Virus record (IMG/VR): IMGVR_UViG_3300018080_008436
Span: 58,998-122,997 of that record
Source: a virus
Reading direction: 5' to 3' (one strand)
DNA length: 64,000 nucleotides
The notes under the pieces were generated by a model that ran no database searches, was not told where the DNA came from, and saw nothing but the letters and a program-made list of their open reading frames with translations. Below are positions 2,964-59,793 of this stretch, one piece after another (position 1 is the stretch's first letter; each line of letters starts with the position of its first letter). The translations under genes and the position numbers were made by a program.

Positions 2964-3558
2964 TCATCTTTTCAATGGCTTTGATTCGGCTTGGAGCCTC
3001 CCCATTGTAATGAATGACTTGTGGATGCTTAAAGTCCTTGTTCCAAGGTCTCAACGGCATAATTCCCAAACCTCTTGGTCTTTTATCCAACCAACTGAGC
3101 ATGTAGTCAGGATAGTCATCGATCAAAATCCTGCCATACACAAGGCTTTTGTCTTGGGTAATGGTTACTCCTACGTTTGGTGGAAGATGCTTTGCACACC
3201 ACTCTACTTTCTGAGTCCATGCAGTTTTGGTGGTTCTTGGTCCTTTGGTCAAGACATGAATCTCGAACCCAACACCAATTGCAGATTTAACAAGATCAAA
3301 GCCATCTTCAAGTCTTGGCAGGTTTAGCCACCAATCCTTACTGTTTTTGATCATATCAATTCTGTTCTGCAAGTATTCAGGATACTTTGTGTCGTGATTC
3401 ATGTCAAATTCGGGTTCATTGGGGGATCTCAACCTTTCGAGATCTTTCTCCAACTGACCAGTGTAATCAGCGACAGTACCATCCATATCGAGTAGACAGA
3501 TCTTCTCGCCTGTAGTGGATTCGGGGCCATTCGTCCTTTGATCGACTTGTATCATCAC
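2944..3558 (-). CDS. HAD-superfamily 5'(3')-deoxyribonucleotidase-like phosphatase
   Basis: An N-terminal DxDGT motif ([13 protein letters not shown]) on a ~200-aa protein matches the NT5C-type deoxyribonucleotidase family. Confidence 0.6.
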
Positions 3559-3770
3559 TTACCTCTATATACAATTCGACCTTTGCTCAGATCATAAGGT
3601 GACATTTCAACTCTGACTTTGTCACCTGTCATGATCTTGATGAAGTTCATTCTCATTTTGCCCGAAATGTGGGCAAGGATCTCATGATCATTGTCAAGTT
3701 TGACTTTGAACATGGTGTTTGGGAGGACTTGCGTAACAACGCCCTCAACTCGAATTGTGTCTTTCGCCAT
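3555..3770 (-). CDS. infA: translation initiation factor IF-1
   Basis: The 71-aa protein [71 protein letters not shown] aligns along its whole length with bacterial IF-1 (S1-like OB fold). Confidence 0.9.
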
Positions 3771-7835: not shown

Positions 7836-8690
7836 CTTTTACCTCAGTCTGTTACATATGTCAGGTTGAGTGTATCTGCCGCATCTTTGTACATATGAGC
7901 GACGAAATCTTCAATCTTCCCATAATGGTTTCGGATTCTATGATCCTCAAACCAGTGGCCTCTGATTTCATTGATATAAGCGATGTGCTCAACAAATGTT
8001 TTGGTATTGTCCATACTCACAACACGTTTCAAAAGTTCTTTCGAATAAGCCTCTACGTTGACTCCAGTGTTGGCATCATCGTTATAAACACTTGATTCAA
8101 TAATCGTATTGTTCTTATCATCTCTTAAGAAATGAACCATGTTACACCTCGTCTTTCTTTACGATGAAAACCTCATCAGTTACTTTGTAATACATCAAAG
8201 CATCCTGTCGGTAGTGCTTGATGGAGAACTTGACAATCTTTTCCAACTGTCTTTCATTACAGGCGACATGAACAGGAATGATCTTTTCTTCGATCAATCT
8301 GTCCTCGTCATTAACCCACTGACCTTTACCAGGGGCGAAGATGGTTAGCCCTCCTGTAATCTTACGAACGTACTTATCCCACTCTTTATGGTGTTTCGTA
8401 CTGACATGACGATCTCCCATCAGAGTAGGGACTAGTATACACCAGACTTTTAATGAATTACTTCTCATTTTCTTAACCATTCAGCTACAGCTTTTGGGGT
8501 TAGCATACCATCTGATGTTTTCTTCCACTGCCCTCTTGCAAAGGTATCAGGACAATCCAGCCCTAAGATTTTCCAGGCTGGCTCACAACGTCTTTCTCCG
8601 TCCTCAGAGTAAGCGATAACAGAGATCTTACCAACTCTGTAGGCCCATTCCTTTCCATCAACAACAATCTTTCTTCCACGTTTTGATAAA

Positions 8691-9263: not shown

Positions 9264-9868
9264 TTTAGATCCTCTATTGTGAAATCAACTCCAAACTCCA
9301 AAAGCATTCCAAGAACAAAAGCATGCCCCATCTTCATCTTAGGGTTTTTCAGAACATCATAATAAGACTTCCAAATTATTTTGTGGTCATAGCCATCGAA
9401 GTCTCTCAGATACAACTTTTGTCCTTTCCTAAGGCAAGTGCTTTCATACTCCATCTTCAGATAACTAAAAGCCTTAGTCTTCGCGATCTGACGATACAAC
9501 GGGATATAAATCTTCTCTCTGGCCTCTGTATAAGTCAACTGTTCTCCATCCCAGTATGAGTATAGGGGTTTGGCTCCTTTGCCCATAGGGTATCTTACAG
9601 CCTTTGGATTGTCCCATCCCTGTTTCGCCCATTCAAAGTACTCATATGTAGGATTCCCATCATCATCCACATGAAGGGGATAAACCTTTGAGTATTGCCA
9701 AGCATTCTCCATATTTTGAGCGACATAGTCACCATATAGTTCAACAGGACCCAAAAAGAATGGAGATAATCCCCGAGACCATGTTCGAGATCTTGACGTT
9801 GTATCAACCACCCGATCATCTGGGAATGTCTTGTCAGTCTGGCTTATGATTCTAAGATTTACACTCAT
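9260..9868 (-). CDS. hypothetical protein
   Basis: 202-aa ORF. Confidence 0.35.
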   Translation of the reverse strand: MSVNLRIISQTDKTFPDDRVVDTTSRSRTWSRGLSPFFLGPVELYGDYVAQNMENAWQYSKVYPLHVDDDGNPTYEYFEWAKQGWDNPKAVRYPMGKGAKPLYSYWDGEQLTYTEAREKIYIPLYRQIAKTKAFSYLKMEYESTCLRKGQKLYLRDFDGYDHKIIWKSYYDVLKNPKMKMGHAFVLGMLLEFGVDFTIEDLK

Positions 9869-15370: not shown

Positions 15371-15763
15371 TTAATACAGCGGGAGATTTCCAGTGATTTC
15401 CTTTATTTGGTCAAAGTCTGCTGGCCCAATTGAAATTCCAACCCAGACTTTGATAGATTTCTTTAATGCCTCTGATGGAACCAAGTCTTCCCACCGACAA
15501 ACAGTAAGTCCTGACTTGACTGCATCATCATAAATATCTTGAAGTTCTTCTTTGGTGTTAACAGCTAGAATAGAAATGTATGGTTTACTCATCCATTCCT
15601 GTTCTTCTTCTGAAAATGGTCTCCCCGCCAGGATGCGAGATCGCATCCATTGGTCTGAAAGATGCGCGACCTGAGCCGCAAGCAATCCTTCAGGGAGTTC
15701 GAACCCTTTTCTCACTACACATGTTAATCTTGTATTAGCCATTACTCGCTCTCCTATGTTCAT
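15371..15763 (-). CDS. peptidyl-tRNA hydrolase, PTH2 family
   Basis: RLTCVVRKGFELPEGLLAAQVAHLS matches the PTH2 K-x-V-x-V-R...G-K-xAAQ-x-H motif. Confidence 0.6.
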   Translation of the reverse strand: MNIGERVMANTRLTCVVRKGFELPEGLLAAQVAHLSDQWMRSRILAGRPFSEEEQEWMSKPYISILAVNTKEELQDIYDDAVKSGLTVCRWEDLVPSEALKKSIKVWVGISIGPADFDQIKEITGNLPLY

Positions 15764-18506: not shown

Positions 18507-19199
18507 TTAGGATTTCTTAATCCCAATGAAGCCAACTTCTTCGTATCCAACAAGACCGCATTTTTTTCTGAGTGGATCATCAGCGAGTAAATATGTTCTG
18601 TCTTGTCTGATAAACTTGTGGACCTCATAACAACCAAGTTCCTCAAAAATCTTTATAAGTCTCTTGTTCTCTTTATCCAAATAATCATCTACTTGTGGAA
18701 CAAAAGGATCTTTTCTGTTGATAATTGCGTTCAATCTTGCTTTAGGAGTTAAAAGCTTATACTTGGTGAAATATTTACGAGCATCCATCTCTGGTAAACA
18801 CGCAATCTCAAAAGTGCGAGATAAGGCTCTTTTTCCAGTTGTGACTTGGATGACTTCTCCAGAGCGATTCTCCATTACATAAGTCATTTCCCTTGGATTT
18901 CTTTCAATTATCGCCAACGCACCTTGTGGAAGGTTATGAACGACAAGTTTACATCTCGGAGAACTTGAAGTCTTGGAAGAAATATATATGGAGTCACTCC
19001 AAATATGCCCAACCCCCTTTAAATCACTAAAGGTACAAGATTCTTTTATTTTATTAAATAACTTTGAAGTACAAACAGTGGCAGGTATAAGTGCTAAAAT
19101 CGACTTGATAAAGTTTTTTCTATTCATTGTTCTTTCTCTTTCTTTAATTGTATGTTGGAGCGGTATACCGAACTCGAATCGGTCCCTCAACCTTGGCAA
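18507..19199 (-). CDS. hypothetical protein with N-terminal signal/TM segment
   Basis: 230-aa ORF containing KNFIKSILALIPATVCTS. Confidence 0.35.
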   Translation of the reverse strand: MPRLRDRFEFGIPLQHTIKERERTMNRKNFIKSILALIPATVCTSKLFNKIKESCTFSDLKGVGHIWSDSIYISSKTSSSPRCKLVVHNLPQGALAIIERNPREMTYVMENRSGEVIQVTTGKRALSRTFEIACLPEMDARKYFTKYKLLTPKARLNAIINRKDPFVPQVDDYLDKENKRLIKIFEELGCYEVHKFIRQDRTYLLADDPLRKKCGLVGYEEVGFIGIKKS

Positions 19200-19309
19200 A
19201 GTTGCATGCTACCACTAACACCAATACCGCATAAAGCGCCCCTCTCCTGATTTGAGCTTCACTAGATAGGCTTAAGAGATCGGACTTGACATACGTCTAT
19301 GCCCATTCT

Positions 19310-19389
19310 TGGTGGACCAAGAGGGATTCGAACCCTCGAAAGAATGCGTCCACTATCGGCTTTAACACTCTTCCTAGCCTAATTAGCCC
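19310..19389 (-). tRNA. tRNA-like gene (anticodon not resolved)
   Basis: The minus strand has a canonical T-arm GAGGG-TTCGAAT-CCCTC, a 3' TTGGTCC-A-CCA end, and a matching 5' acceptor strand GGGCTAA. The D and anticodon arms are irregular. Confidence 0.45.
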
Positions 19390-19391
19390 AT

Positions 19392-19470
19392 TGGCGCGGA
19401 GGGTTGGATTCGAACCAACGTCTCTAGGTTCTTACGCCTAGTGCAATAACTTCCAATCCAGATCCTTTTG
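19392..19470 (-). tRNA. tRNA-like 3' portion (5' boundary uncertain)
   Basis: T-arm GTTGG-TTCGAAT-CCAAC and a 3' CCTCCGC-G-CCA end are present. The only matching 5' acceptor strand (GCGGAGG) lies ~200 nt upstream at 19587-19593. Confidence 0.35.
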
Positions 19471-19599
19471 GCCTTAAAGGTCTAGAAAGGTCGAAGATTA
19501 ATAATATTCCGCTTCGGTAAAAACGTAAGATTATCTAGAAATCTTAGTCCCCTAGCATTCAATTATCAACCTGTCCTCTATGCTACCTCCGCATAAATT

Positions 19600-19684
19600 T
19601 GGAGCGAAAGAAAGGAGTCGAACCTTTTAATCAAGAGTCTCTACGACCGATAACGAGCCTTGAAGTATTACCACATACTTTCGC
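19600..19684 (-). tRNA. tRNA-like, long (type-II-sized, 82 nt + CCA)
   Basis: Acceptor GCGAAAG/CTTTCGC, T-arm AAAGG-TTCGACT-CCTTT, and an encoded CCA. The internal arms are non-canonical. Confidence 0.45.
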
Positions 19685-19815
19685 TAAAGTGAGGATTTTA
19701 ATAGCCGAGAGTACCTCACAATTCTCTCCGCAGTGATTATGATTGAGACCGTCAAATCACTCTTGGCTACGCATTACTGCGCTGTCCCAAACCTATAAAT
19801 AGGTCAACCAAACGT

Positions 19816-19902
19816 TGGAGCGGGTAACAGGATTCGAACCTGCGTAAACTATTCGCCTCGAACTTGGAAGGATCGCGCTCTACCTGACTGAGCTATACCC
19901 GC
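19816..19902 (-). tRNA. tRNA (D-arm GCTC-AGTCAGGTA-GAGC; ~15-nt variable region; anticodon loop possibly CUUCCAA)
   Basis: Acceptor GCGGGTA/TACCCGC, T-arm GCAGG-TTCGAAT-CCTGT, and an encoded CCA. Confidence 0.55.
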
Positions 19903-19908
19903 AAAACC

Positions 19909-19982
19909 TGGAGCGGATAGAGGAATTCGAATCCTCGCCAAGAGGTTGGAAACCTCGTATGCTACCATTACACCATACCCGC
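19909..19982 (-). tRNA. tRNA-Gly (UCC)
   Basis: The structure GCGGGTA-TG-GTGT-AATGGTA-GCAT-A-CGAGG-TTTCCAA-CCTCT-TGGC-GAGGA-TTCGAAT-TCCTC-TATCCGC-T-CCA closely resembles T4 tRNA-Gly. Confidence 0.8.
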
Positions 19983-20224
19983 ATAAAAAGATGCCCCTAC
20001 AACCCCCGCTAAAGGGAATGAACTGTGACGAATGACATTTTCGAGCGCTACTCCAATGTCAATTTTCACGTTGCCCAGCATCACCTGTAAGCGTCTTCTC
20101 TGGATTCATTGTCCAGCGACTCATTCACCAAAATGATTCCCATTTTCGCTTTATCCAGTAGGTTCCTGGGGTGGGCTAAAACCACCGCCATAGTTCATCA
20201 TTCTTTGCAGGCGCATAAAAAGTC

Positions 20225-20300
20225 TCCCACTGGGACTTGAACCCAGAACTCGCATACATTTCCCAAGGTTGTGCTCGTTAACTCTGACGCTCAAGGTTCC
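20225..20300 (-). ncRNA. tRNA-like 3' element (T-arm CTGGG-TTCAAGT-CCCAG, no encoded CCA)
   Basis: A T-arm and 3' acceptor strand TGGGAGA are present, but the only matching 5' strand (TCTCCCA) is ~155 nt upstream (20378-20384). It may be analogous to the small stable tRNA-like RNAs of the T4 tRNA region. Confidence 0.3.
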
Positions 20301-20384
20301 TGTACGCCAGCGAATCCTCGTTCTTATATCAGCGAATCTATCTGACCAAACAAGGAACACCTATACCATTTAGCGATGGGAGAT

Positions 20385-20464
20385 TGGTGGGTTCGGCAGG
20401 ACTTACACCTGCATTACCTCTCATGGGGGAATCGAGAGGGTCTTAAAAATTAGATGACGAACCC
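20385..20464 (-). ncRNA. tRNA-like element with non-canonical T-loop and enlarged anticodon-region loop
   Basis: Acceptor pair GGGTTCG/CGAACCC and an encoded CCA, with T-arm GCAGG-TGTAAGT-CCTGC and a candidate stem CTCTC/GAGAG enclosing 11 nt. Confidence 0.35.
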
Positions 20465-20467
20465 AAA

Positions 20468-20587
20468 TGGTGGCTCAGGTAGGATTTTACCTACAATGCA
20501 TGTTGGGGGATTTCGGCCAGCTATACCTGTAACCTACACCAATCATTGCAAGGATTGGTACTTCGCGTATAGTTCCGCCACTGAGCC
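20468..20587 (-). ncRNA. tRNA-like stable RNA (~117 nt + CCA)
   Basis: Acceptor pair GGCTCAG/CTGAGCC and an encoded CCA, a T-arm-like hairpin GTAGG-TAAAAT-CCTAC, and internal hairpins (ACCAATC...GATTGGT). Confidence 0.35.
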
Positions 20588-20826
20588 ATAAAAATGTTTC
20601 TGGTAGGTTTTGCACCTACATCCTGATGAGACTCACCGTGTAGTACAGCATTACCAAAGGCACTCTGCCGCCCCATTACGACATCAAACGCGACACTTTA
20701 AGCTCACACTATCAAGAAGGAGGTCACCGCACACTGGGTCAAATAGTGACTTTCCGAGCTTGCCTGCGGGTTACCCCGCTTCAGAAACAGTAAATTGTTA
20801 AAGATCACTTTTCTCTTTCGAGAAAT

Positions 20827-20927
20827 TGGTAGCGAGAGCAGGAATCGAACCTGCGTCAACAGAGATCATGACTCTCTGTGGGAAAGCTCATTTCGTTTCG
20901 GAAAGAGCGACCAACATCCTTCTCGCA
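20827..20927 (-). ncRNA. tRNA-like with CAU anticodon loop and an extra 23-nt hairpin in the D region
   Basis: T-arm GCAGG-TTCGATT-CCTGC, 3' TCTCGCT-A-CCA end, and anticodon stem-loop CAGAGA-GUCAUGA-UCUCUG. A GCTCTTTCCGAAACGAAATGAGC hairpin is inserted, and positions 1 and 72 are T and T. Confidence 0.35.
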
Positions 20928-20928
20928 T

Positions 20929-21017
20929 TGGTAGCGGAGGCAGGACTCGAACCTGCGAGGAATTTTACTTCCTTCTGGCTTATGAGACCAGCGAGTTACC
21001 AACTACTCTACTCCGCA
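20929..21017 (-). tRNA. type-II (long-variable-arm) tRNA with CAU anticodon
   Basis: Folds cleanly as TGCGGAG-TA-GAGT-AGTTGGTA-ACTC-G-CTGGT-CTCATAA-GCCAG-[AAGGAAGTAAAATTCCTC]-GCAGG-TTCGAGT-CCTGC-CTCCGCT-A-CCA. The discriminator is A73 and positions 1 and 72 are U and U. Confidence 0.6.
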
Positions 21018-21077
21018 ATCAACATGTTACTAGTATAACTCATGTAAAAGAGATTTCAAGCCCAAAGAAAAAAAAAT

Positions 21078-21785
21078 CTAATCAAGCCATTTTTCGCTCT
21101 GGTCCCCAAGGATCTCTTTTACAGATCCATACAGATTTTGAACAATATCAGTTCTGTGTAATTTTATCCTACACACTCCATAGGGATGCTTAACCTTCCT
21201 GCTAGATGTGTGGTAATTTTGTTTAACAGTGGCTTTGTTCAAATTCTCTTTTGACAAACCTAGAACACCCAGCCAATAAGTTTCTATATCTTCAAGGGTC
21301 AATCCATTGTTGGTATAACAATTTATCCTAACCTTCCATTCTCTTTCTTCGACAGAAAAAAACTCGTTGACACAATCAAAGAAATATCTCACCAACATTG
21401 GGTCTGTGTTAGAAAACGCAACATAATTTCTTGCTTTATCACCCTCTGCGATAAATAGCGCGTAAAAGAATCCTTTCTTGATAGAAGCTTTATCGCTATT
21501 TTTTATGTGATACCTTCCATTACTTTGGCATTTCACTCTCTTTTCCCTAAGCTGTCGATTCTTAGTCTCATGAGCGATTTTAATATCACTTCCGCTTTTT
21601 TTCAAGTTTAATGCAAATTCTTCAGGAACAATCACGTCACGAACCCAAAGGCTAACAGTGCTTTTGGCAACACTTAGCTCATTTGCAATCATCCCCAAAG
21701 ACCACCCTCTTTTTCGGAGGGAGATAGCTTGTTCTTTTTCTTTCTTTTTCATTTTCGAACCTCTGTTTTCGAACCTATATTTCAT
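21078..21785 (-). CDS. HTH DNA-binding protein, possibly a homing endonuclease
   Basis: N-terminal HTH (LRKRGWSLGMIANELSVAKSTVSLWVRD) and a weakly LAGLIDADG-like segment (GFFYALFIAEGDK). It sits directly beside the tRNA cluster, as seg-type endonucleases do in T4. Confidence 0.4.
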   Translation of the reverse strand: MKYRFENRGSKMKKKEKEQAISLRKRGWSLGMIANELSVAKSTVSLWVRDVIVPEEFALNLKKSGSDIKIAHETKNRQLREKRVKCQSNGRYHIKNSDKASIKKGFFYALFIAEGDKARNYVAFSNTDPMLVRYFFDCVNEFFSVEEREWKVRINCYTNNGLTLEDIETYWLGVLGLSKENLNKATVKQNYHTSSRKVKHPYGVCRIKLHRTDIVQNLYGSVKEILGDQSEKWLD

Positions 21786-25943: not shown

Positions 25944-28900
25944 TTAGCTTGTTTTGAAGATATTATACCAATCATGCTGATAAACGAGATCATCTTCGTC
26001 ATCTCCTGGCTGATAGCCTGGAGGACGAGGACCACCTGGATCGTCAATGACCCTTGGGACATATGTATCCTTTTGTGGAACTTTTTTAGCTTCTTCAATG
26101 TATTGGATTACTCTTTCATAAGCAATCCTTCCACTCTTAGTCTGTAGAACTCTTCCTTCGAAAAGTGCGTCAAGTTGTTTTATGATCTGAAGTTTGATTT
26201 CTGGGGATGGGGGATTCTTGCTGATGTTGTATGCTTTAAGAGCGGCCCTTCTGATTAATCGCTCATTCTTCTTCAACATAGGATATGAGTTCATGATTCT
26301 GGTTAGCTCTTTATAATCACCCCTTTCCAAAGCAGTCTCAGCGACTCCTACGGCTCTCTTAGACTCTCTTGATCTAAATTCCTCCACATGCTTCTCTGTT
26401 ACAATTGGTTTGCCGTAAAGATCTTGAATCTGTTTGATTATTGTATCATAATATGGATCACCTTTGTAGAACATACACATTGTGCTTAAGGTAACACATT
26501 TCTTATAAAATGCTGGATTTTTGGCAAGTCTTCCGCCATATAAATCATTAATACCTTTCATTTTGTCAAGAGGACTTTCTCCAGAATCAGAACCGTCTCT
26601 TATGTTGTTCCAGTTCAAGTATGTGCTTGTAGCATATGCTACAGCTTCTCCTAAAGAATCATCTGCGATTTCCTGAACCTTCTCTTTGATAAGCTTACCC
26701 CTGGTTCTCTTGTTCAGTTCCCCTATCTTTTCCCTATCACCTCTAGCAAATGCTGTCTGAGCATCTCTCTTTATACTTTGGTAAGTCTTCTCTGCAATAT
26801 CTTGGTAATATGGTTTAAGTGGAGTTCCGATCAATCTCTTGAAATCGTTGTAATACCCTTCTGTTTGATCCCAGCTAGTGTTCATGTCTGACAAAATCCT
26901 AGAAGCATGAGTAACTGAACGTTGAAGAAACCTTTCAGTATCAAAAAGATCACCTTTGAAGTTTTGGTTCAGAAGAATTAACTGATTATAGTTACTAGCA
27001 TCAAGGTGATTAATAGCTACTTCAGTAGCCTGTTGAATTGCTTGCTGATAAATTCGTTCATAATGCACCCCTCTAGAAAGTTCATTGTTTAATACCCTAT
27101 CAACCTGTTGGAAAAGATCTGGGTTATGAACCATCCATGTTGAACTCATCCTGATTACAGCTTCTTTGACTTCGTCTCTTGCACTTAACTCTGGGAATCT
27201 CTCCAAAATATCTCTAAATGCTGTTAGATCATTCTCTGCTAAATAGTTGATCACTTTATTTTCAGCAAGTCCTAGTGCTCCCTCATAAATAACATCAAAA
27301 TATTTCGGTTCGGATAACTTCTCATCAAAGAAATCATTTAAATTGTTAAAGGCCATTTGGTCTTCCACAAGCATTAATGAAGCTCTTTCAAGCATCATTT
27401 CAAATGCCTCTTCTTTGAACTCATCCAAATTCTCTTTAAGGTCAAAGTGAACTCTTATGTTATTAAATTTGTTGAAATTATTATCTTTAATTGCATCAAT
27501 ACAAGCTTCTGTAGCTACACCCTTAAATAAAGGCGCGGCCCCAGATTGATTAATGATTGCCTGAACATCATAAAGTAAAGTTTTTTGGGTGGCACTTTCT
27601 CTTTGATTCACCAGCCTCATATAAGCTTGGAAAGCTAAGTCTTGGACTTCTTTGTGTTTAACGGGGATTGATCCCATTTGGTTGTTCAATTTAGCAAAAT
27701 CAACCCTTTGTGTATTAAGGTAATCTTTTGCACCTTCTTCGATAATAGTTTCCAACTCTTTTTTAATGAGTTCGATGGATAACTGTTGTACCACTGGGTC
27801 TTTCTTTAAAAAAGAGTATCGGCCTAAATTAAACTCAACTTCATTTGGAGAAATAGATACTAATCTATCTCGACAAACTTTGTGAAATCTCGATGCTTGG
27901 ATTTCTTTGCGCATACCATCAATTTCTTTCTTGTGGTCTTTGGCTTCATTCAACGTCCATCTGACTTTCTTGACATCTTCTCTTCGTCTTGCCTCATCCT
28001 CTTCAGTCTCGCCTCTGGTTTTCCTCAAAGCTTGTTCTTGCTTTGCTGAATCTTGAATTTTTGCATTTATCTTAGCATCCATATTTTCAAGACCATTTAT
28101 ATAAGCATCTGCTTTGGCAGAATAGAACAAATTCTCAACTTTTGAAAGCTTTGTGATCTCCTTCCTATTTACCCACATTCGATTCTTTTCATTTCGAAGT
28201 GATTCAATTTTCTTCCTAACCTCTGCAACAAGTTTTTCTAAAGGTAAATTTAGTTTTATATTCGCTTTCTCTAAAGCTATCGTCAATTCAGATCTTCCGA
28301 GACCTTGCCTTACCTTCTTTTCAAAAAGTTCATCATCTATTTTAAAACCATATTGACTAAGAAGTTTTCCTTTATCTCCTTTATGCAAGTCAGCGAAGCA
28401 CTCATCCATGTTACTGACTGCTCCTTTGGAGAATTTATCAATTGTACTATTGTCTAAGTAATAGAAAGCATGCCCATTAGAAGTTATCTCTGGATCACTC
28501 ACCATATTAGTAATTTCTTCGATGTTTTTCCCAGATAGGTCTTTAACCCTTTCCTCGTCTTCACGAAGTTTTTTGAGGTTGTAGTGACCGGTCTTGTTCA
28601 TCTCAGAATTGATATGTGGATGTCTTTGACAGAGATTATATACTTTGTCAGCATACGGGACGATAGTGATATCCTTATTATTCAGCCCTCTAACTTCTTG
28701 TATTCGGCTACCGATGAACCTGATCGCCACTCTTGGGGCACCACCCTCTACATAGAACCAGAAATCTCCTTGGTAAGTATAATCTTTTGCGGTTCCAAGT
28801 CCACCTATGCACCATCCAGCACTATTAGTCAACATACTAATAATCTTGCCTCTGGCATCAGAAGTGGTTACATCCAGACCCCTAATTTGATTTCTAATAT

Positions 28901-29846
28901 CCTCTGGGTATTTTATTTTGGCACCGACATTTCTTCCACCAGGGATAACAACCCAATCATTCTTAAGCCCCTTAATATCTTCTTGAGAGACTTTATTAAG
29001 AGCATCTTCACCTTCGAGGTTCTTTTGTGTATTAAAATATGATGAAAATATTTGCTTATTACCCAGTGGCCTTTTGGAACTCTTCATCTCTTCATAGATA
29101 GGAGCAAGTTCTTCTTTCTTCGCCAAGGCTTCTTGTAAGTTTTCTTCAGCTTTTTTGATAACTACAGGTGCTTCATTTTTCTTTTTAAGTTGATTAACCT
29201 GATTGGTCAACTTAGACACTTGTTTGTTCAAGTTCTGGTAAACTGATGCTGTTTTTTCCTCCAAAACATAGATTCCACTTTCTATGTCTTCCTGCGTAAT
29301 TCCAAATTTTGCTAAGGTCTGAGTCTTAAGTCGATCACCAGCAAGTGCCTGCATATAGTTGTCAATCTTCGGAACGGACATCTCTTCATAAGATGCTTGC
29401 AAAACCTTATCTGTTGGTTCTGCGAGGGGACTGTTGGCAACAGAAACGGAAAGAATATAAAGGAAAGGATTGCTAAGTCTGTAAGTAAATTCTTTTGGTT
29501 GTTCGCCAAATAGAAGGTTCTCCCACTTAGGGATCTGCATCATGGCTTTAAGATAAACTCTTCTGTCTTGGTAAGATAACTCTTGCTTTTGAAGATCTTT
29601 GGCATCGAAGGTTAAAATCTTCTCAAAGTTAGCCTTGGATTTTTCTAAGAGTTCTTTAGCTTTTCCACTGACAATAAACTTGTCGATTTCTGCTCGTAAG
29701 CTTTTCTCATCATTGATGGCCTGCCAGTCAAGGTAGGCTCCACCTTTTCTATCTTCCAGGTTACAGATATTGATTAAGAGGGGATCAGTGGGATTTCCTG
29801 CACTTTTCAGCTTCTCTTCAACTTTTGCAATTTTAATGAATTTCAT
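25944..29846 (-). CDS. large hypothetical protein (1300 aa)
   Basis: The longest ORF in the window, with no recognisable catalytic motif and a coiled-coil segment around residues 200-250. It may be a virion or injected protein. Confidence 0.5.
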   Translation of the reverse strand: MKFIKIAKVEEKLKSAGNPTDPLLINICNLEDRKGGAYLDWQAINDEKSLRAEIDKFIVSGKAKELLEKSKANFEKILTFDAKDLQKQELSYQDRRVYLKAMMQIPKWENLLFGEQPKEFTYRLSNPFLYILSVSVANSPLAEPTDKVLQASYEEMSVPKIDNYMQALAGDRLKTQTLAKFGITQEDIESGIYVLEEKTASVYQNLNKQVSKLTNQVNQLKKKNEAPVVIKKAEENLQEALAKKEELAPIYEEMKSSKRPLGNKQIFSSYFNTQKNLEGEDALNKVSQEDIKGLKNDWVVIPGGRNVGAKIKYPEDIRNQIRGLDVTTSDARGKIISMLTNSAGWCIGGLGTAKDYTYQGDFWFYVEGGAPRVAIRFIGSRIQEVRGLNNKDITIVPYADKVYNLCQRHPHINSEMNKTGHYNLKKLREDEERVKDLSGKNIEEITNMVSDPEITSNGHAFYYLDNSTIDKFSKGAVSNMDECFADLHKGDKGKLLSQYGFKIDDELFEKKVRQGLGRSELTIALEKANIKLNLPLEKLVAEVRKKIESLRNEKNRMWVNRKEITKLSKVENLFYSAKADAYINGLENMDAKINAKIQDSAKQEQALRKTRGETEEDEARRREDVKKVRWTLNEAKDHKKEIDGMRKEIQASRFHKVCRDRLVSISPNEVEFNLGRYSFLKKDPVVQQLSIELIKKELETIIEEGAKDYLNTQRVDFAKLNNQMGSIPVKHKEVQDLAFQAYMRLVNQRESATQKTLLYDVQAIINQSGAAPLFKGVATEACIDAIKDNNFNKFNNIRVHFDLKENLDEFKEEAFEMMLERASLMLVEDQMAFNNLNDFFDEKLSEPKYFDVIYEGALGLAENKVINYLAENDLTAFRDILERFPELSARDEVKEAVIRMSSTWMVHNPDLFQQVDRVLNNELSRGVHYERIYQQAIQQATEVAINHLDASNYNQLILLNQNFKGDLFDTERFLQRSVTHASRILSDMNTSWDQTEGYYNDFKRLIGTPLKPYYQDIAEKTYQSIKRDAQTAFARGDREKIGELNKRTRGKLIKEKVQEIADDSLGEAVAYATSTYLNWNNIRDGSDSGESPLDKMKGINDLYGGRLAKNPAFYKKCVTLSTMCMFYKGDPYYDTIIKQIQDLYGKPIVTEKHVEEFRSRESKRAVGVAETALERGDYKELTRIMNSYPMLKKNERLIRRAALKAYNISKNPPSPEIKLQIIKQLDALFEGRVLQTKSGRIAYERVIQYIEEAKKVPQKDTYVPRVIDDPGGPRPPGYQPGDDEDDLVYQHDWYNIFKTS

Positions 29847-52745: not shown

Positions 52746-53069
52746 TTAGCCCAAATCCTCAATGTCGATGAAGTCAACCGAAGGGCTTACACAACATTCG
52801 AATCGACCTTTCTCAAAATAGAACTCAGGGCCATACGACCACTTTATTCCGACCAAGTCTTCTACGTCTAATTCGAACTCTTCTTCGTAACCCTCGTCAT
52901 AGTGAGGTTTACAGAAAGTATTGACGATCTTTTCTAAAAACCCAGGTTTGTCTTTCAGATAGTTAAACCCCTCTTCATAAGTTTCAATCTCATCAGGGAT
53001 GATGAAACCAACTGGGCACATATATCCACCGTCTTCACGGTCAATTATTCCGAACAACATTATCTGCAT
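52746..53069 (-). CDS. hypothetical protein
   Basis: 107-aa ORF. Confidence 0.35.
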   Translation of the reverse strand: MQIMLFGIIDREDGGYMCPVGFIIPDEIETYEEGFNYLKDKPGFLEKIVNTFCKPHYDEGYEEEFELDVEDLVGIKWSYGPEFYFEKGRFECCVSPSVDFIDIEDLG

Positions 53070-53480
53070 TTATTCTTTCTCCCTTGCAATCCACCCGAAG
53101 GGATCATGTTGACCACCCCCAGTTCTTCTTGTTAACTCACTATGACAGTTCCCGCACCTTCTGGACATCCCAGGAAATGGAGAGCATCTTGTTGGGCCAT
53201 CACCAACTTCATCATGACATTGGTAACAAAGCCAAGCAACATTTTTTAGCTCTTTCCACTGACTCCACTTATCACGATCATTCAAATCGTTAAAATATTC
53301 GATGTCTTGATCGTCGTAAGTTTCTTCAGCTTCAGATTCATCCTCTGCCATTCCCAGAACCTGGATGACCTGATTTATACGCCGTTCTGCTTCTTCATAG
53401 GCATCTTCATCAGACATAGGATGCTCTTTTTGAAGGATCTTCGCGAGTTCTCTGATGGCTCTAGACATATTATTCCTCAA
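53070..53480 (-). CDS. zinc-finger protein
   Basis: CYQCHDE...CSPFPGMSRRCGNCH. Confidence 0.4.
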   Translation of the reverse strand: MRNNMSRAIRELAKILQKEHPMSDEDAYEEAERRINQVIQVLGMAEDESEAEETYDDQDIEYFNDLNDRDKWSQWKELKNVAWLCYQCHDEVGDGPTRCSPFPGMSRRCGNCHSELTRRTGGGQHDPFGWIAREKE

Positions 53481-58467: not shown

Positions 58468-59793
58468 TTATTTTCCGTTAGGTGAAAACTCAACCAAGTA
58501 CTTCAGGTTAACTTGGGACGTTCTGTAAACGATCATTTCGTTGTTCATGACCCCAGACTTGTTCGCCTTAGCGAAAGTGGAATCAGTATTACGAACAGGG
58601 AAACCGCTTCCGTAACGAGCAGGGACATGATAATTGCCCATTGCCATATCCAAAAGGAACATGAAGCAATTGTTGTCAGCCTTTCCGCCCCAATAGCCAT
58701 AAGCGTAGTTTAACGCCTTCGTAGACTGATCTGAGGCGTAGACCCCATTCCCGAACATTCGGCCCGTACAATGGCTTGAAGAGGCTGGAGGAATGACCAG
58801 ACCGCCCTTCAGGATCGAAAGAAGGTTGGATGCTCTTGTACCATGCCATAACTCCCAGATGTTGTCCATCTTCGCCCCATCCAATTCGAAAGCCTGACGG
58901 ACAGTATTGATGTCAACCTTGTAAATGGTTTTGACATCCAGGTGATAACAGGCATGTCTTGACTGACGGGTTTTCCCATACATCTTTTTAATATGGGCCA
59001 GAGTCTTGGAATCTTCTACCAGATCCAGTTGAACATCGAAGACCTGTTCTTCAGGAAGTTTCACAGTCTTCTTGCGTCCAGGCTGAGTGGTTGCAGTAAC
59101 CAAAGATGCCTGTAAAGCATCAACAATTGACTTCTGTTTCTGGACCTTGGCAAGATCAGACCAGAAATTATTCACATCCAGTCGCTTTCTTCCAATGTTC
59201 TGAGGGACCAACATAAGGTAGTCATTGGTCAAGTCGCCTAATTTTGCAGTGTAACGACCTTTGGCAACCATATCACCAATCTTGACCAGGATGTCATTGG
59301 CATCATCAATATTACCTTGAGTGACGATACCCATGGGCGTTGAAAACAGCCCTGTAGTATCATTGAAGGTAATCTGACCGCCAGTAGCAGATGAGATCTG
59401 ATGGGCGTTGACTTTCGTCAGATAGGTGATCAACTTTGCAACGTTGGGGTTGTTATATTTGATTTGTTTCTTGGCAACGCTTTCGAGGTTGGCCTTCGCA
59501 ACGGTTTTCTGAGCGGTCTGAGTCGTTGTTCCACCTTCAACGATCTCAATCTCTCGATAAGCGATCTCACCATTTCGACCAGAACGAAGTTTAGATCTAA
59601 TCTTGCTTTCAGCAAACTTTCGGCCTGCCGCTTCACTACCTTTCTGGTAGGTTCGGCTTTGTCCTGAATCTCCTACGCGACCATAGCGGACGGTTACTTC
59701 TCCATCGTCATAGATTTCAACATTCCAGAATTTGTTGTTGTTCTTTTTGTGATCGCTTTTGATGAAATGGCGTTTTTCGATTAATGTACCCAT
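58468..59793 (-). CDS. WGR-domain poly(ADP-ribose) polymerase (PARP)-like ADP-ribosyltransferase
   Basis: N-terminal WGR domain (KFWNVEIYDDGEVTVRYGRVG). C-terminal PARP catalytic H-Y-E triad region: LWHGTRASNLLSILKGGLVIPP...GRMFGNGVYASDQSTKALNYA...NNEMIVYRTSQVNLKYLVEF. The last segment is near-identical in pattern to the PARP1 C-terminus [24 protein letters not shown]. Confidence 0.8.
   Translation of the reverse strand: MGTLIEKRHFIKSDHKKNNNKFWNVEIYDDGEVTVRYGRVGDSGQSRTYQKGSEAAGRKFAESKIRSKLRSGRNGEIAYREIEIVEGGTTTQTAQKTVAKANLESVAKKQIKYNNPNVAKLITYLTKVNAHQISSATGGQITFNDTTGLFSTPMGIVTQGNIDDANDILVKIGDMVAKGRYTAKLGDLTNDYLMLVPQNIGRKRLDVNNFWSDLAKVQKQKSIVDALQASLVTATTQPGRKKTVKLPEEQVFDVQLDLVEDSKTLAHIKKMYGKTRQSRHACYHLDVKTIYKVDINTVRQAFELDGAKMDNIWELWHGTRASNLLSILKGGLVIPPASSSHCTGRMFGNGVYASDQSTKALNYAYGYWGGKADNNCFMFLLDMAMGNYHVPARYGSGFPVRNTDSTFAKANKSGVMNNEMIVYRTSQVNLKYLVEFSPNGK

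Follow-up and report, generated by a model that had tools for sequence, protein, structure and literature searches.

An RNA operon of a huge phage in which ordinary tRNAs are interleaved with aberrant, probably non-decoding tRNA-framed RNAs

The window analysed here is a stretch of 64,000 nt (positions 58,998 to 122,997 of IMG/VR virus record IMGVR_UViG_3300018080_008436) and is part of a 523,871-bp metagenomic contig (ENA ERZ27256796, k141_941235). The contig carries rIIA, a gene for a poly(ADP-ribose) polymerase (PARP)-like protein, PTH2, two sigma-factor-like genes, and proteases, and with this content and a length of about 524 kb it was assigned to a huge phage. Nearly all genes of the window are on the minus strand, and they use the standard code and ordinary GGAG/GAGG Shine-Dalgarno (SD) sites. 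An RNA operon lies on the minus strand at 19128-21077, in a 2-kb stretch free of predicted open reading frames (ORFs); zero genes are called there on the source contig, and a mechanical ORF list has just short overlapping ORFs of 40-132 aa on both strands. The cluster consists of four ordinary tRNAs interleaved with at least eight aberrant units built on a tRNA frame. In the aberrant units the 7-bp acceptor stem and the T arm are kept and CCA is encoded in most, and in place of the anticodon arm there is either a longer stem, its loop 8-17 nt in size, or a set of hairpins covering 90-130 nt. Units are designated E1 to E11 in the 5' to 3' direction of the minus strand, to which all window coordinates below refer. 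The initial annotation had placed a cluster of canonical and aberrant tRNA units at 19300-21020, and sequence inspection and a motif scan recovered every unit that it listed at the same positions. Its statement that all elements have a good T arm, acceptor pairing, and an encoded CCA holds for the acceptor and T arms; CCA is missing from E5 and E2b, and the T loops of E3 and E4 are non-canonical.

A tRNA was considered canonical if it reached the gathering score of Rfam family RF00005 or was called by ARAGORN with default settings. E1, E6, and E7 are canonical in both programs, and E11 is so in ARAGORN and in a focused Rfam search. E1 (20929..21017) is a tRNA-Met(CAU) of 89 nt with 57.5 bits in Rfam, a U1.U72 mismatch, and a 5-bp extra variable arm of class-II-like type; it probably decodes, and a 92-nt CAU tRNA with an extra arm is found at the same position in the related contig L013. 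E6 (19909..19982), which the initial annotation had already taken as a canonical tRNA-Gly(UCC), is called as such by ARAGORN and scores 61.8 bits in Rfam, and it has orthologues in the related contigs L013, L014, and L023. E7 (19816..19902) is a second tRNA-Gly(UCC), 87 nt long and with 60.8 bits in Rfam, with the acceptor of E6 and a 13-nt extra variable loop. The extra variable arm or loop of E1 and E7 (89 and 87 nt) is unusual for Met(CAU) and Gly(UCC) tRNAs in bacteria. E11 (19156..19230), a canonical tRNA-Gly(GCC) called by ARAGORN, is the last unit and ends 29 nt before the next ORF; its Rfam score of 47.9 bits comes from the focused search only and is absent from the whole-window gathering run.

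A sigma70-like promoter candidate (21032..21059, TTGAAA-16-TATACT) with 10 of 12 consensus matches is located about 15 nt upstream of the first unit, and the arrangement TTGAAA...TATACT/TATATT is also found ahead of the Met unit in L023 and L013. Spacers between the units either are 1-7 nt long or end in UUUAU|G, a leader that precedes five units. The motif scan looked for a 5-bp stem with a 6-7-nt loop, then 7 nt pairing 7/7 with an upstream heptamer, then NCCA. Within 1.9 kb it returned nine distinct closed units, all on one strand, of which seven have TTCRANY loops; shuffled windows give about five loose matches per 64 kb on both strands together, so the cluster is more than a product of chance.

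E3 (20468..20587) is a Leu-framed RNA; the initial annotation gave its length as about 120 nt, and it is exactly 120 nt. It has the acceptor GGCUCAG/CUGAGCC, A73-CCA, D arm GCGG-AACUAUA-CGC, and T arm GUAGG UAAAAU CCUAC. A 6-bp stem with the 8-nt loop CUUGCAAU and a 43-nt variable region lie in between, the T loop has 6 nt and is non-canonical, and the U8/A14/A15 core is retained. Orthologues were identified with a degenerate E3 pattern in metagenomes of the Joint Genome Institute, on contigs L013, L014, and L016/L023. All four sequences share the 7-bp acceptor, U8-G9, a D arm of tRNA-Leu type (GCGG-AA...(A)GA-CGC-G), AAGUA, the 6-bp stem closing an invariant 8-nt loop CUUGCNAU, a variable region of differing length ending in CAAACAG-YR-UU, the T arm GUAGG/CCUAC with a non-canonical loop, and NCCA. 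The window copy deviates with CAACAUG for CAAACAG and uAUA-CGC for AGA-CGC and still falls within the family definition; an unrelated 16-25-nt hairpin inserted in the D loop of the L013, L014, and L023 copies is not found in it.

The 21 pairs of the four E3 helices are standard in all four sequences, and both sides changed in six of them, divided equally (three each) between the acceptor stem and the 'anticodon' stem. In 500 column shuffles neither the pairing nor the covariation score was equalled, sliding the partners destroys the pairing, and RNAalifold gives the same four helices when unguided. Invariant ungapped columns make up 64% in E3; in the tRNA-Gly(UCC) orthologues from these four genomes they make up 36%. 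R1, a covariance model built for the E3 family, was run on five copies and scores the window copy at 108 bits and the orthologues at 123-154 bits, while ordinary tRNAs reach 30 bits at most. Because the E3 pattern gave chance matches only in GTDB genomes, E3 is not an RNA of host type.

E4 (20385..20464) has 80 nt, and its z-score of -4.45 makes it the most significant fold in the cluster. It has a D arm UC-AUCU..AGAC, a 6-bp stem with the C-rich loop GAUUCCCCCAU, whose 11 nt agree with the count in the initial annotation, a 4-nt variable loop, and the T loop UGUAAGU. The frame (UC-GUCU...AGAC-A with a 4-nt variable loop) is taken to be that of tRNA-Glu, by comparison with the E. coli tRNA-Glu sequence. 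At 904..818 of L023 lies the orthologue of E4, in which the T loop is unchanged and the C-rich loop GAACUCCCCCUCU is carried by a different stem, of 8 bp; compensatory changes are found in the acceptor and T stems, and the loops are 11 and 13 nt long. Units at 3502 of L013 and 2398 of L014 form a paralogous sub-family with a 17-nt loop, and further paralogues have the same frame and other loops. In six parsed members of the family the acceptor and T helices are fully paired throughout, with single mismatches in the D stem of two and in the anticodon-like stem of one; G3:U70 is found in four of the six. When IMG/VR was scanned with the E4 T-arm word, almost all matches were due to chance, and two loci proved relevant later.

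The relatives of the cluster are remote. No relative is found in cultured phages, where the best rIIA match has 34% identity; flanking proteins used as anchors in IMG/VR gave nothing; and the 206-aa downstream protein has zero homologues among 5.8 billion proteins. Upstream of the cluster, a 235-aa ORF of helix-turn-helix (HTH) type (21785..21078) shares 46% identity with a homologue on the 4.3-kb scaffold L002, the minus strand of which has many weak tRNA matches of odd length and, on reading, clear homologues of E3 and E4. L013 is a 45.7-kb contig containing the L002 sequence, and L018 is identical to the window. The 1138-aa ORF of L013 is 29% identical to the 1300-aa ORF of the window (E = 2e-57), each being 5-6 kb upstream of its cluster, and the order promoter, Met(CAU), E3, E4-type unit, Gly(UCC) is conserved in L013, L014, and L023. 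Judged from these sequences, L013 is a distant relative with conserved gene order. Content of the cluster differs even between L013 and L014, which are otherwise 96-100% identical.

Several further features of these contigs were recorded. The 1300-aa ORF (25944-29846) has no Pfam or PHROG match, and a word-indexed search with it returned nothing at E <= 1e-10, the query itself included, despite the homologue in L013. At 3830-3690 on the minus strand of L013 (1260-1120 of L002), between the E3 and E4-type units, there are two copies of a repeat of about 45 nt, each with the anti-SD-like CUCCUCCUCCU; they are missing from the window and L014. At 1975-1634 on the same strand of L013, a tRNA 5' half (GCGGGAG UA GCUC AGUGGUA GAGC ...) is followed by about 270 nt with a promoter-like site and then by a Gly(UCC) tRNA, the 3' acceptor strand of which is also close to matching the 5' half upstream. 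Disruption or rearrangement of a tRNA gene may account for this layout.

The initial annotation had offered decay as one explanation of the aberrant units, which would then be functionless pseudogenes that arose by duplication and insertion in a fast-evolving cluster. Decay is rejected for E3 and E4, since they covary and are conserved across phages with 29-46% protein identity, E3 being better conserved than a real tRNA. As far as can be judged from the aligned copies, their helices and loop sequences are under purifying selection, and both are working RNAs rather than dead tRNA genes. Decay could still apply to E2, E2b, E5, E8, E9, and E10.

E2 (20827..20927), found by the motif scan, is 101 nt long with a z-score of -2.7 and a Met-type frame UGCGAGA...UCUCGCU-A-CCA. 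A 23-nt hairpin in the D region, reported in the initial annotation, is present, together with a 7-bp stem with the 7-nt loop GUCAUGA. The frame resembles that of E1 (U1, GCG.., A73-CCA), with six of seven acceptor pairs and a U1.U72 mismatch, and a permissive Rfam search matched E2 solely to tRNA-Sec at 19.8 bits. Units at 2512..2440 of L013 and 747..672 of L023 are tentative counterparts of E2, as they share a UG[CU]GAG start, A73-CCA, and a CAU-containing loop. E2b (20595..20788) is a weak candidate of 194 nt from the motif scan with a z-score of -1.1, closed by GUUUCUG/CAGAAAC, with a T-like hairpin GUAGG UGCAAAA CCUAC and without CCA; its region is weakly similar to 3281..3107 of L013 (nhmmer E = 0.007).

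Two units of the motif scan have their 5' acceptor strands far upstream, as the initial annotation had noticed, and in both the acceptor pairs 7/7 by Watson-Crick pairs. The first, E5 (20383..20222), is 162 nt long and has the acceptor UCUCCCA/UGGGAGA, a canonical D arm (GCUA AAUGGUA UAGG), a canonical T arm (CUGGG UUCAAGU CCCAG), a multi-hairpin middle of about 95 nt, and the tail CUUU in place of an encoded CCA. The second, E9 (19592..19392), has 201 nt, the acceptor GCGGAGG/CCUCCGC, G73-CCA, a z-score of -3.2, a D-arm-like start, a canonical T arm, two long hairpins that take up about 125 nt past the D region, and an arm CUAGG-CGUAAGAA-CCUAG with an 8-nt loop; against the Rfam tRNA model it scores 22.6 bits in its 3' part only. 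In E8 (19600..19684), an 85-nt motif-scan unit, the acceptor end is of Gly type (G1C2G3, U73, CCA), the T arm is canonical, and a 33-nt hairpin takes the place of the anticodon arm; its sole match in the permissive Rfam search is tRNA-Sec at 21.3 bits. E10 (19310..19389), also from the motif scan, has 80 nt and GGGCUAA/UUGGUCC with G3:U70, A73, and CCA, which is the alanine identity set; its T arm is canonical, a D stem is missing, and a single long helix is present. Acceptor pairs are complete (7/7) in E3, E4, E5, E8, E9, and E10, and CCA is encoded in E2, E3, E4, E8, E9, and E10. A structured spacer RNA candidate of about 225 nt with paired ends and uncertain boundaries (19990..20214, z = -2.05) has the leader UUUUUAU|G in front, and no orthologue of it was found in related contigs.

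A search of IMG/VR with the E10 3'-end pattern returned ordinary Ala or Met tRNAs only, plus one unrelated aberrant unit. The unrelated IMG/VR contig L006 has at 8322-8430 on the plus strand an Ala-type unit of 106-109 nt with G3:U70, A73-CCA, good D and T arms, and an insert of about 33 nt in the anticodon/variable region; it scores 49 bits in Rfam tRNA and is not called by ARAGORN.

For the cluster as a whole decay is unlikely. In its favour, no orthologue was detected in related contigs for E2b, E5, E8, E9, and E10, several z-scores are near background, cluster content is variable between related phages as noted for L013 and L014, and a GU-tolerant 7/7 acceptor match within 200 nt is expected by chance with an estimated probability of about 0.2. 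The Watson-Crick acceptors of E5 and E9 have a chance of about 0.01 each, are followed directly by D-arm-like sequence, and have in front the leader shared with real tRNAs, and E2, E8, E9, and E10 keep canonical T loops and CCA. The intact stems, T loops, and CCA ends of the units without orthologue argue against advanced decay. The aberrant units were also considered as attP-type tRNA fragments, and this was excluded since 5' acceptor strands and D arms are present.

The initial annotation had proposed covariance-model searches and ARAGORN as a check, in which refolding as ordinary tRNAs would speak against aberrant units. No such refolding occurred: E2, E2b, E3, E4, E5, E8, E9, and E10 are below the Rfam gathering score and have no default ARAGORN call, the best sub-threshold scores of the aberrant units being 19.8-24.6 bits to the tRNA, tRNA-Sec, or tmRNA models. 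A standard anticodon arm (stem of 5 bp, loop of 7 nt, U33, purine 37) is missing from E2, E3, E4, E5, E8, E9, and E10. The arm at the anticodon position has 6 bp and 8 nt in E3, 6 bp and 11 nt in E4, 7 bp and 7 nt in E2, and 5 bp and 8 nt with G33 in E9; E8 and E10 have one long hairpin there, and no credible arm is found in E5. An elbow, defined as G18G19 in the D loop and U54-Psi55-C56 in a 7-nt T loop, is missing in E3 (D loop GAACUAUA, T loop UAAAAU) and E4 (D loop AAUUUUUA, T loop UGUAAGU) and present at sequence level in E2, E5, E8, E9, and E10. The E3 stem can be extended to 9 bp and loop position '37' is U in three of the four sequences, so it is not a decoding anticodon arm. It is almost certain that the aberrant units are unable to read codons.

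That they are nevertheless decoding tRNAs with expansions or introns, the 8-nt loops of E3 (CUUGCNAU) and E9 (CGUAAGAA) reading four-base or unusual codons, E2 reading AUG, and E5 acting as an ochre suppressor, is therefore very unlikely. The 7-nt loop of E2 (G-U-CAU-G-A) does have U33 and a purine at 37, E1 and E7 demonstrate that extra arms are tolerated in canonical-scoring tRNAs of this lineage, and tRNA-Pyl, which has a 6-bp stem and is without a canonical elbow, does decode. ARAGORN with introns allowed (-i) also offers anticodons for E5 and E9; stems of 6-9 bp and loops of 8-17 nt, the differing loops of E4 and its orthologue (11 and 13 nt), and the inconsistency of forced anticodons among the listed matches of a related IMG/VR class speak against decoding, and the standard code and ordinary SD sites of the window ORFs call for no recoding. 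The inserts are 23-125 nt long, far below the group I intron core of about 200 nt or more, and the Rfam search of the region found no Intron_gpI and no other ribozyme match. Removal of the 'introns' proposed by ARAGORN left still aberrant tRNAs. E5 as a tRNA-Stop(UUA) with a 71-nt intron and E9 as a tRNA-Pro(UGG) with a 104-nt intron are not credible, for each solution leaves an unpaired variable loop of about 24 nt (24 nt in both cases), and calls made with introns or with lowered thresholds were in general inconsistent and non-credible. Matches to YrlA and tRNA-Sec models in Rfam were rejected as artefacts of general tRNA likeness.

Stable tRNA-like RNAs of the T4 tRNA cluster have been known for decades, and their function is unexplained. 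In T4, rnaC and rnaD lie beside the homing-endonuclease gene segB. The two ends of rnaC (species 1, 139 nt) pair with each other and enclose a long insert, and its T arm, CCGGG UUCGAAU CCCGG, is canonical. Like the window units, the small T4 species 1 and 2 RNAs lie in a phage tRNA cluster and share the strand of its tRNAs. The window differs in having many more units, recognisable parental frames (Leu, Glu, Ala-like, Gly-like, Met-like), and a mostly encoded CCA. In sensitive nhmmer searches (--max) with rnaC and rnaD there was no match to 19100-21100 at E <= 10, and model R1 had no match in the T4 tRNA region. The suggestion in the initial annotation that the units are counterparts of the T4 stable RNAs thus stands in kind, on account of the T arm and end pairing of rnaC and the conservation of E3 and E4, and fails for homology; the comparison supports counterparts in kind rather than homologues. 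The parallel may extend to mobile genes, with segB in the T4 cluster and the HTH-type ORF beside the cluster in the window. A homologue of this ORF is found inside the cluster of L013 (4187-4882, plus strand) in opposite orientation and is missing from L023; its homologues (HTH_23/HTH_38-type) are mostly stand-alone genes in bacteria or candidate phyla radiation (CPR) genomes. The ORF behaves like a mobile gene and in this recalls segB; no nuclease domain was found in it.

E10 looks like the tRNA-like domain of transfer-messenger RNA (tmRNA, RF00023) without the mRNA part, to judge by G3:U70, A73-CCA, the canonical T arm, the missing D stem, and a long helix at the exit of the anticodon stem. 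The tmRNA model aligns to both ends of E10 with 303 model positions deleted (24.6 bits, gathering score 47, E = 1.9e-7). Unlike tmRNA, E10 has only 80 nt and neither a tag reading frame nor pseudoknots, and ARAGORN with defaults found no tmRNA there. In the engineered 'tRNA scaffold', a tRNA frame is built around a recombinant RNA to have it processed and stabilised in cells. The window units similarly keep the acceptor/T-arm frame and have the anticodon or variable region swapped for a structured insert; unlike the engineered scaffold, they are natural, conserved, and phage-encoded.

Further RNAs for comparison are known from the literature. The nev-tRNAs and allo-tRNAs have a Leu/Ser-type frame with a mismatched anticodon region and rely on synthetases that ignore the anticodon (PMC3333845, PMC5389517); they keep a 5-bp stem and a 7-nt anticodon loop and decode, whereas E3 and the Leu-framed units described below are without a standard anticodon arm. 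YrlA (RF02553) is a non-coding RNA with a tRNA-mimicking module, reported in phages too (PMC4201824). It ends at a Ro-binding stem rather than an acceptor and has no CCA end, unlike the window units, and its sole match (27.1 bits, gathering score 69) lies across the junction of two real Gly tRNAs. Phages are generally stated to contain tRNA-like structures (PMC10690425), and phage tRNAs can counter tRNA-targeting defence (PMC13096335). No description of the RNA families of this cluster was found in a literature search.

Model R1 also matches two IMG/VR contigs, L037 and L044, at 24-39 bits. Their units have a Leu-type D arm, a closed acceptor, a T arm (UGUAAGU in one), and a middle of 60-170 nt differing in length. 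IMG/VR was scanned with the pattern GTGGCGGAA-N(1-30)-AGACGC-NAA, and the class was defined by a 7/7 acceptor, GUGGCGGAA..AGACGC-NAA, a T arm, a length of more than 95 nt, and the absence of an ARAGORN call. Among the loci listed (L037, L044, and L149-L266, e.g., L209 4181-4286, L158 3357-3472, and L165 8867-9070) there are at least 58 distinct units with acceptor stem and T arm, at least 52 of them 96-238 nt long. A73 is found in 38 of these 52 listed units, an encoded CCA in one, and a D-loop hairpin insert in three; ARAGORN calls none of the 52, and the anticodons from its intron mode are inconsistent. Rfam has no family dedicated to them, and some score 35-40 bits with the generic tRNA model only. 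Three orthologues have a compensatory change in a central stem. For about 40% of the listed units, canonical tRNAs of the same strand are found no more than 2 kb away, no protein family is common to more than four of 54 loci among the matches listed, and two representatives had no match in cultured phages. E3 shares the D arm with this class and the UGUAAGU or UAAAAU types of T loop with some members; the window E3 differs by the missing AGACGC word and by its encoded CCA, found in one of the 52 listed members. It is plausible, on sequence likeness, that E3 is a branch of this large uncurated class of phage RNAs and that they are of common descent.

Other RNAs were noted at the same loci. L037 (4392-4462) and L044 (620-690), both on the minus strand, encode a tRNA with 52-59 bits in Rfam and a 6-nt anticodon loop AUUCCA, for which ARAGORN gives a two-base anticodon 'tc'. 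A type-P5 twister ribozyme (L201 11480-11534, minus strand, 58.5 bits) and a DUF2693-FD RNA (L153 791-839, minus strand, 76.5 bits) are each in a locus with a Leu-framed RNA. On the phage-like contig L011 a tRNA-like unit without CCA (9686-9831, plus strand) is followed by a sub-threshold match to a hepatitis-delta-virus-like ribozyme (RF02682, 37.9 bits, gathering score 44), the cut of which would fall exactly at the 3' end of the unit; L011 also encodes two CUA (amber-reading) tRNAs, an RF-1-domain protein, PTH2, and a CysRS-like gene. In the window, a PTH2-type peptidyl-tRNA hydrolase gene of archaeal/eukaryotic type (15371-15763) is 3.4 kb downstream of the RNA cluster and is the sole other tRNA-related function seen near it. 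A phage-encoded protein at 58468-59793 has WGR, PARP regulatory, and PARP catalytic domains (PF05406, PF02877, PF00644), a poly(ADP-ribose) polymerase architecture of eukaryote-like kind.

The locus is more probably a phage tRNA operon in which four decoding tRNAs and non-decoding tRNA-framed RNAs come from the same transcript or transcripts, the latter being probably mimics of tRNA bodies. The retained frame would be the part recognised by RNase P, 3' trimming enzymes, and other tRNA-binding proteins, so that, going by shape alone, the units would be cut from the polycistron like tRNAs. The frame may also stabilise them as a natural version of the engineered scaffold, and the variable 'head' would carry the specific function. 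Mimicry of tRNA bodies is favoured as the mode of action because the frames come from particular tRNAs (Leu in E3, Glu in E4, Ala-like in E10, Gly-like in E8, and Met-like in E2), because E3 (A73 and the Leu D arm) and E10 (G3:U70 and A73) keep identity sets for synthetases blind to the anticodon, and because a non-decoding mimic could bind tRNA-directed factors and still avoid mistranslation. Such mimics could be bound by host tRNA-binding factors, and perhaps charged by them, while staying out of decoding. They could then serve as aminoacyl carriers, or as decoys or sponges for, e.g., tRNA-directed host toxins and nucleases. An accessory, conflict-related role fits the cassette-like turnover of units between L013 and L014.

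Several points weigh against mimicry by non-decoding RNAs. The E3 covariation comes from four distinct genomes only, with statistics that ignore their kinship, and G73 in the E3 of L023 weakens a uniform Leu identity. Selection on E2b, E5, E8, E9, and E10 is unproven, and, E9 excepted, their z-scores are unremarkable. As the example of tRNA-Pyl teaches, a 6-bp anticodon stem and a non-canonical elbow do not alone exclude decoding. The mimic or decoy step is conjectural, and the conserved loops could equally be antisense seeds.

An antisense role of the conserved loops is the main functional rival to mimicry. The frame would then serve processing and stability only, and the loops (UCCCCC in E4, CUUGCNAU in E3) would be pre-organised seeds pairing with G-rich or SD-like sites in mRNAs of the host or the phage. 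It is consistent with loops that stay invariant while stems covary, with the recurrence of C-rich loops on the Glu-type frame (window E4, L023 904, and L013 about 3586..3512), with the two anti-SD-like CUCCUCCUCCU repeats in the L013 cluster, and with the GGAG/GAGG-type SD sites of window genes. The complement of the window E3 loop, ATTGCAAG, occurs seven times outside E3, in all cases on the sense strand (minus strand, between 5083 and 57868), where about 3.4 +/- 1.6 are expected on both strands, and the site at 53083-53090 overlaps the SD of the gene starting at 53069. This enrichment is weak (z about 2) and the sites are mostly inside coding sequence, GGGGGA is found at two of 81 starts and is not an SD motif of this phage, and the L013/L014 sub-family has a different, non-C-rich 17-nt loop. 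An antisense function is on this evidence distinctly unlikely, if less so than decoding.

Stable tRNA-like RNAs of T4 type were known before; new are the conserved covarying families and the unexpectedly wide class related to them. Phage RNAs of tRNA-like shape can form families that covary and are more strongly conserved than a real tRNA nearby, and they are modular, with recognisable tRNA frames and exchangeable heads. As standard annotation overlooks them, counts of phage 'tRNA genes' miss a layer of tRNA-shaped RNAs, which may belong with phage tRNAs as counter-measures to tRNA-targeting defence. The invariant loops, identity elements, and frames give comparative handles for experiments. 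A broader proposal, tentative and rather improbable at present, is that phages widely encode aminoacylatable non-decoding tRNA mimics of Leu type (E3 and the Leu-framed RNAs) and Ala type (E10 and the E4-family members with G3:U70), on frames whose synthetases take no account of the anticodon. Processed and charged in the manner of tRNAs, they would act as decoys for host toxins or nucleases that attack tRNA bodies and acceptor ends, or would divert aminoacyl groups or rescue factors, and would leave decoding undisturbed. If this were true, it would give a general, testable answer to the 50-year-old question on the 'stable RNAs' of T4 type.

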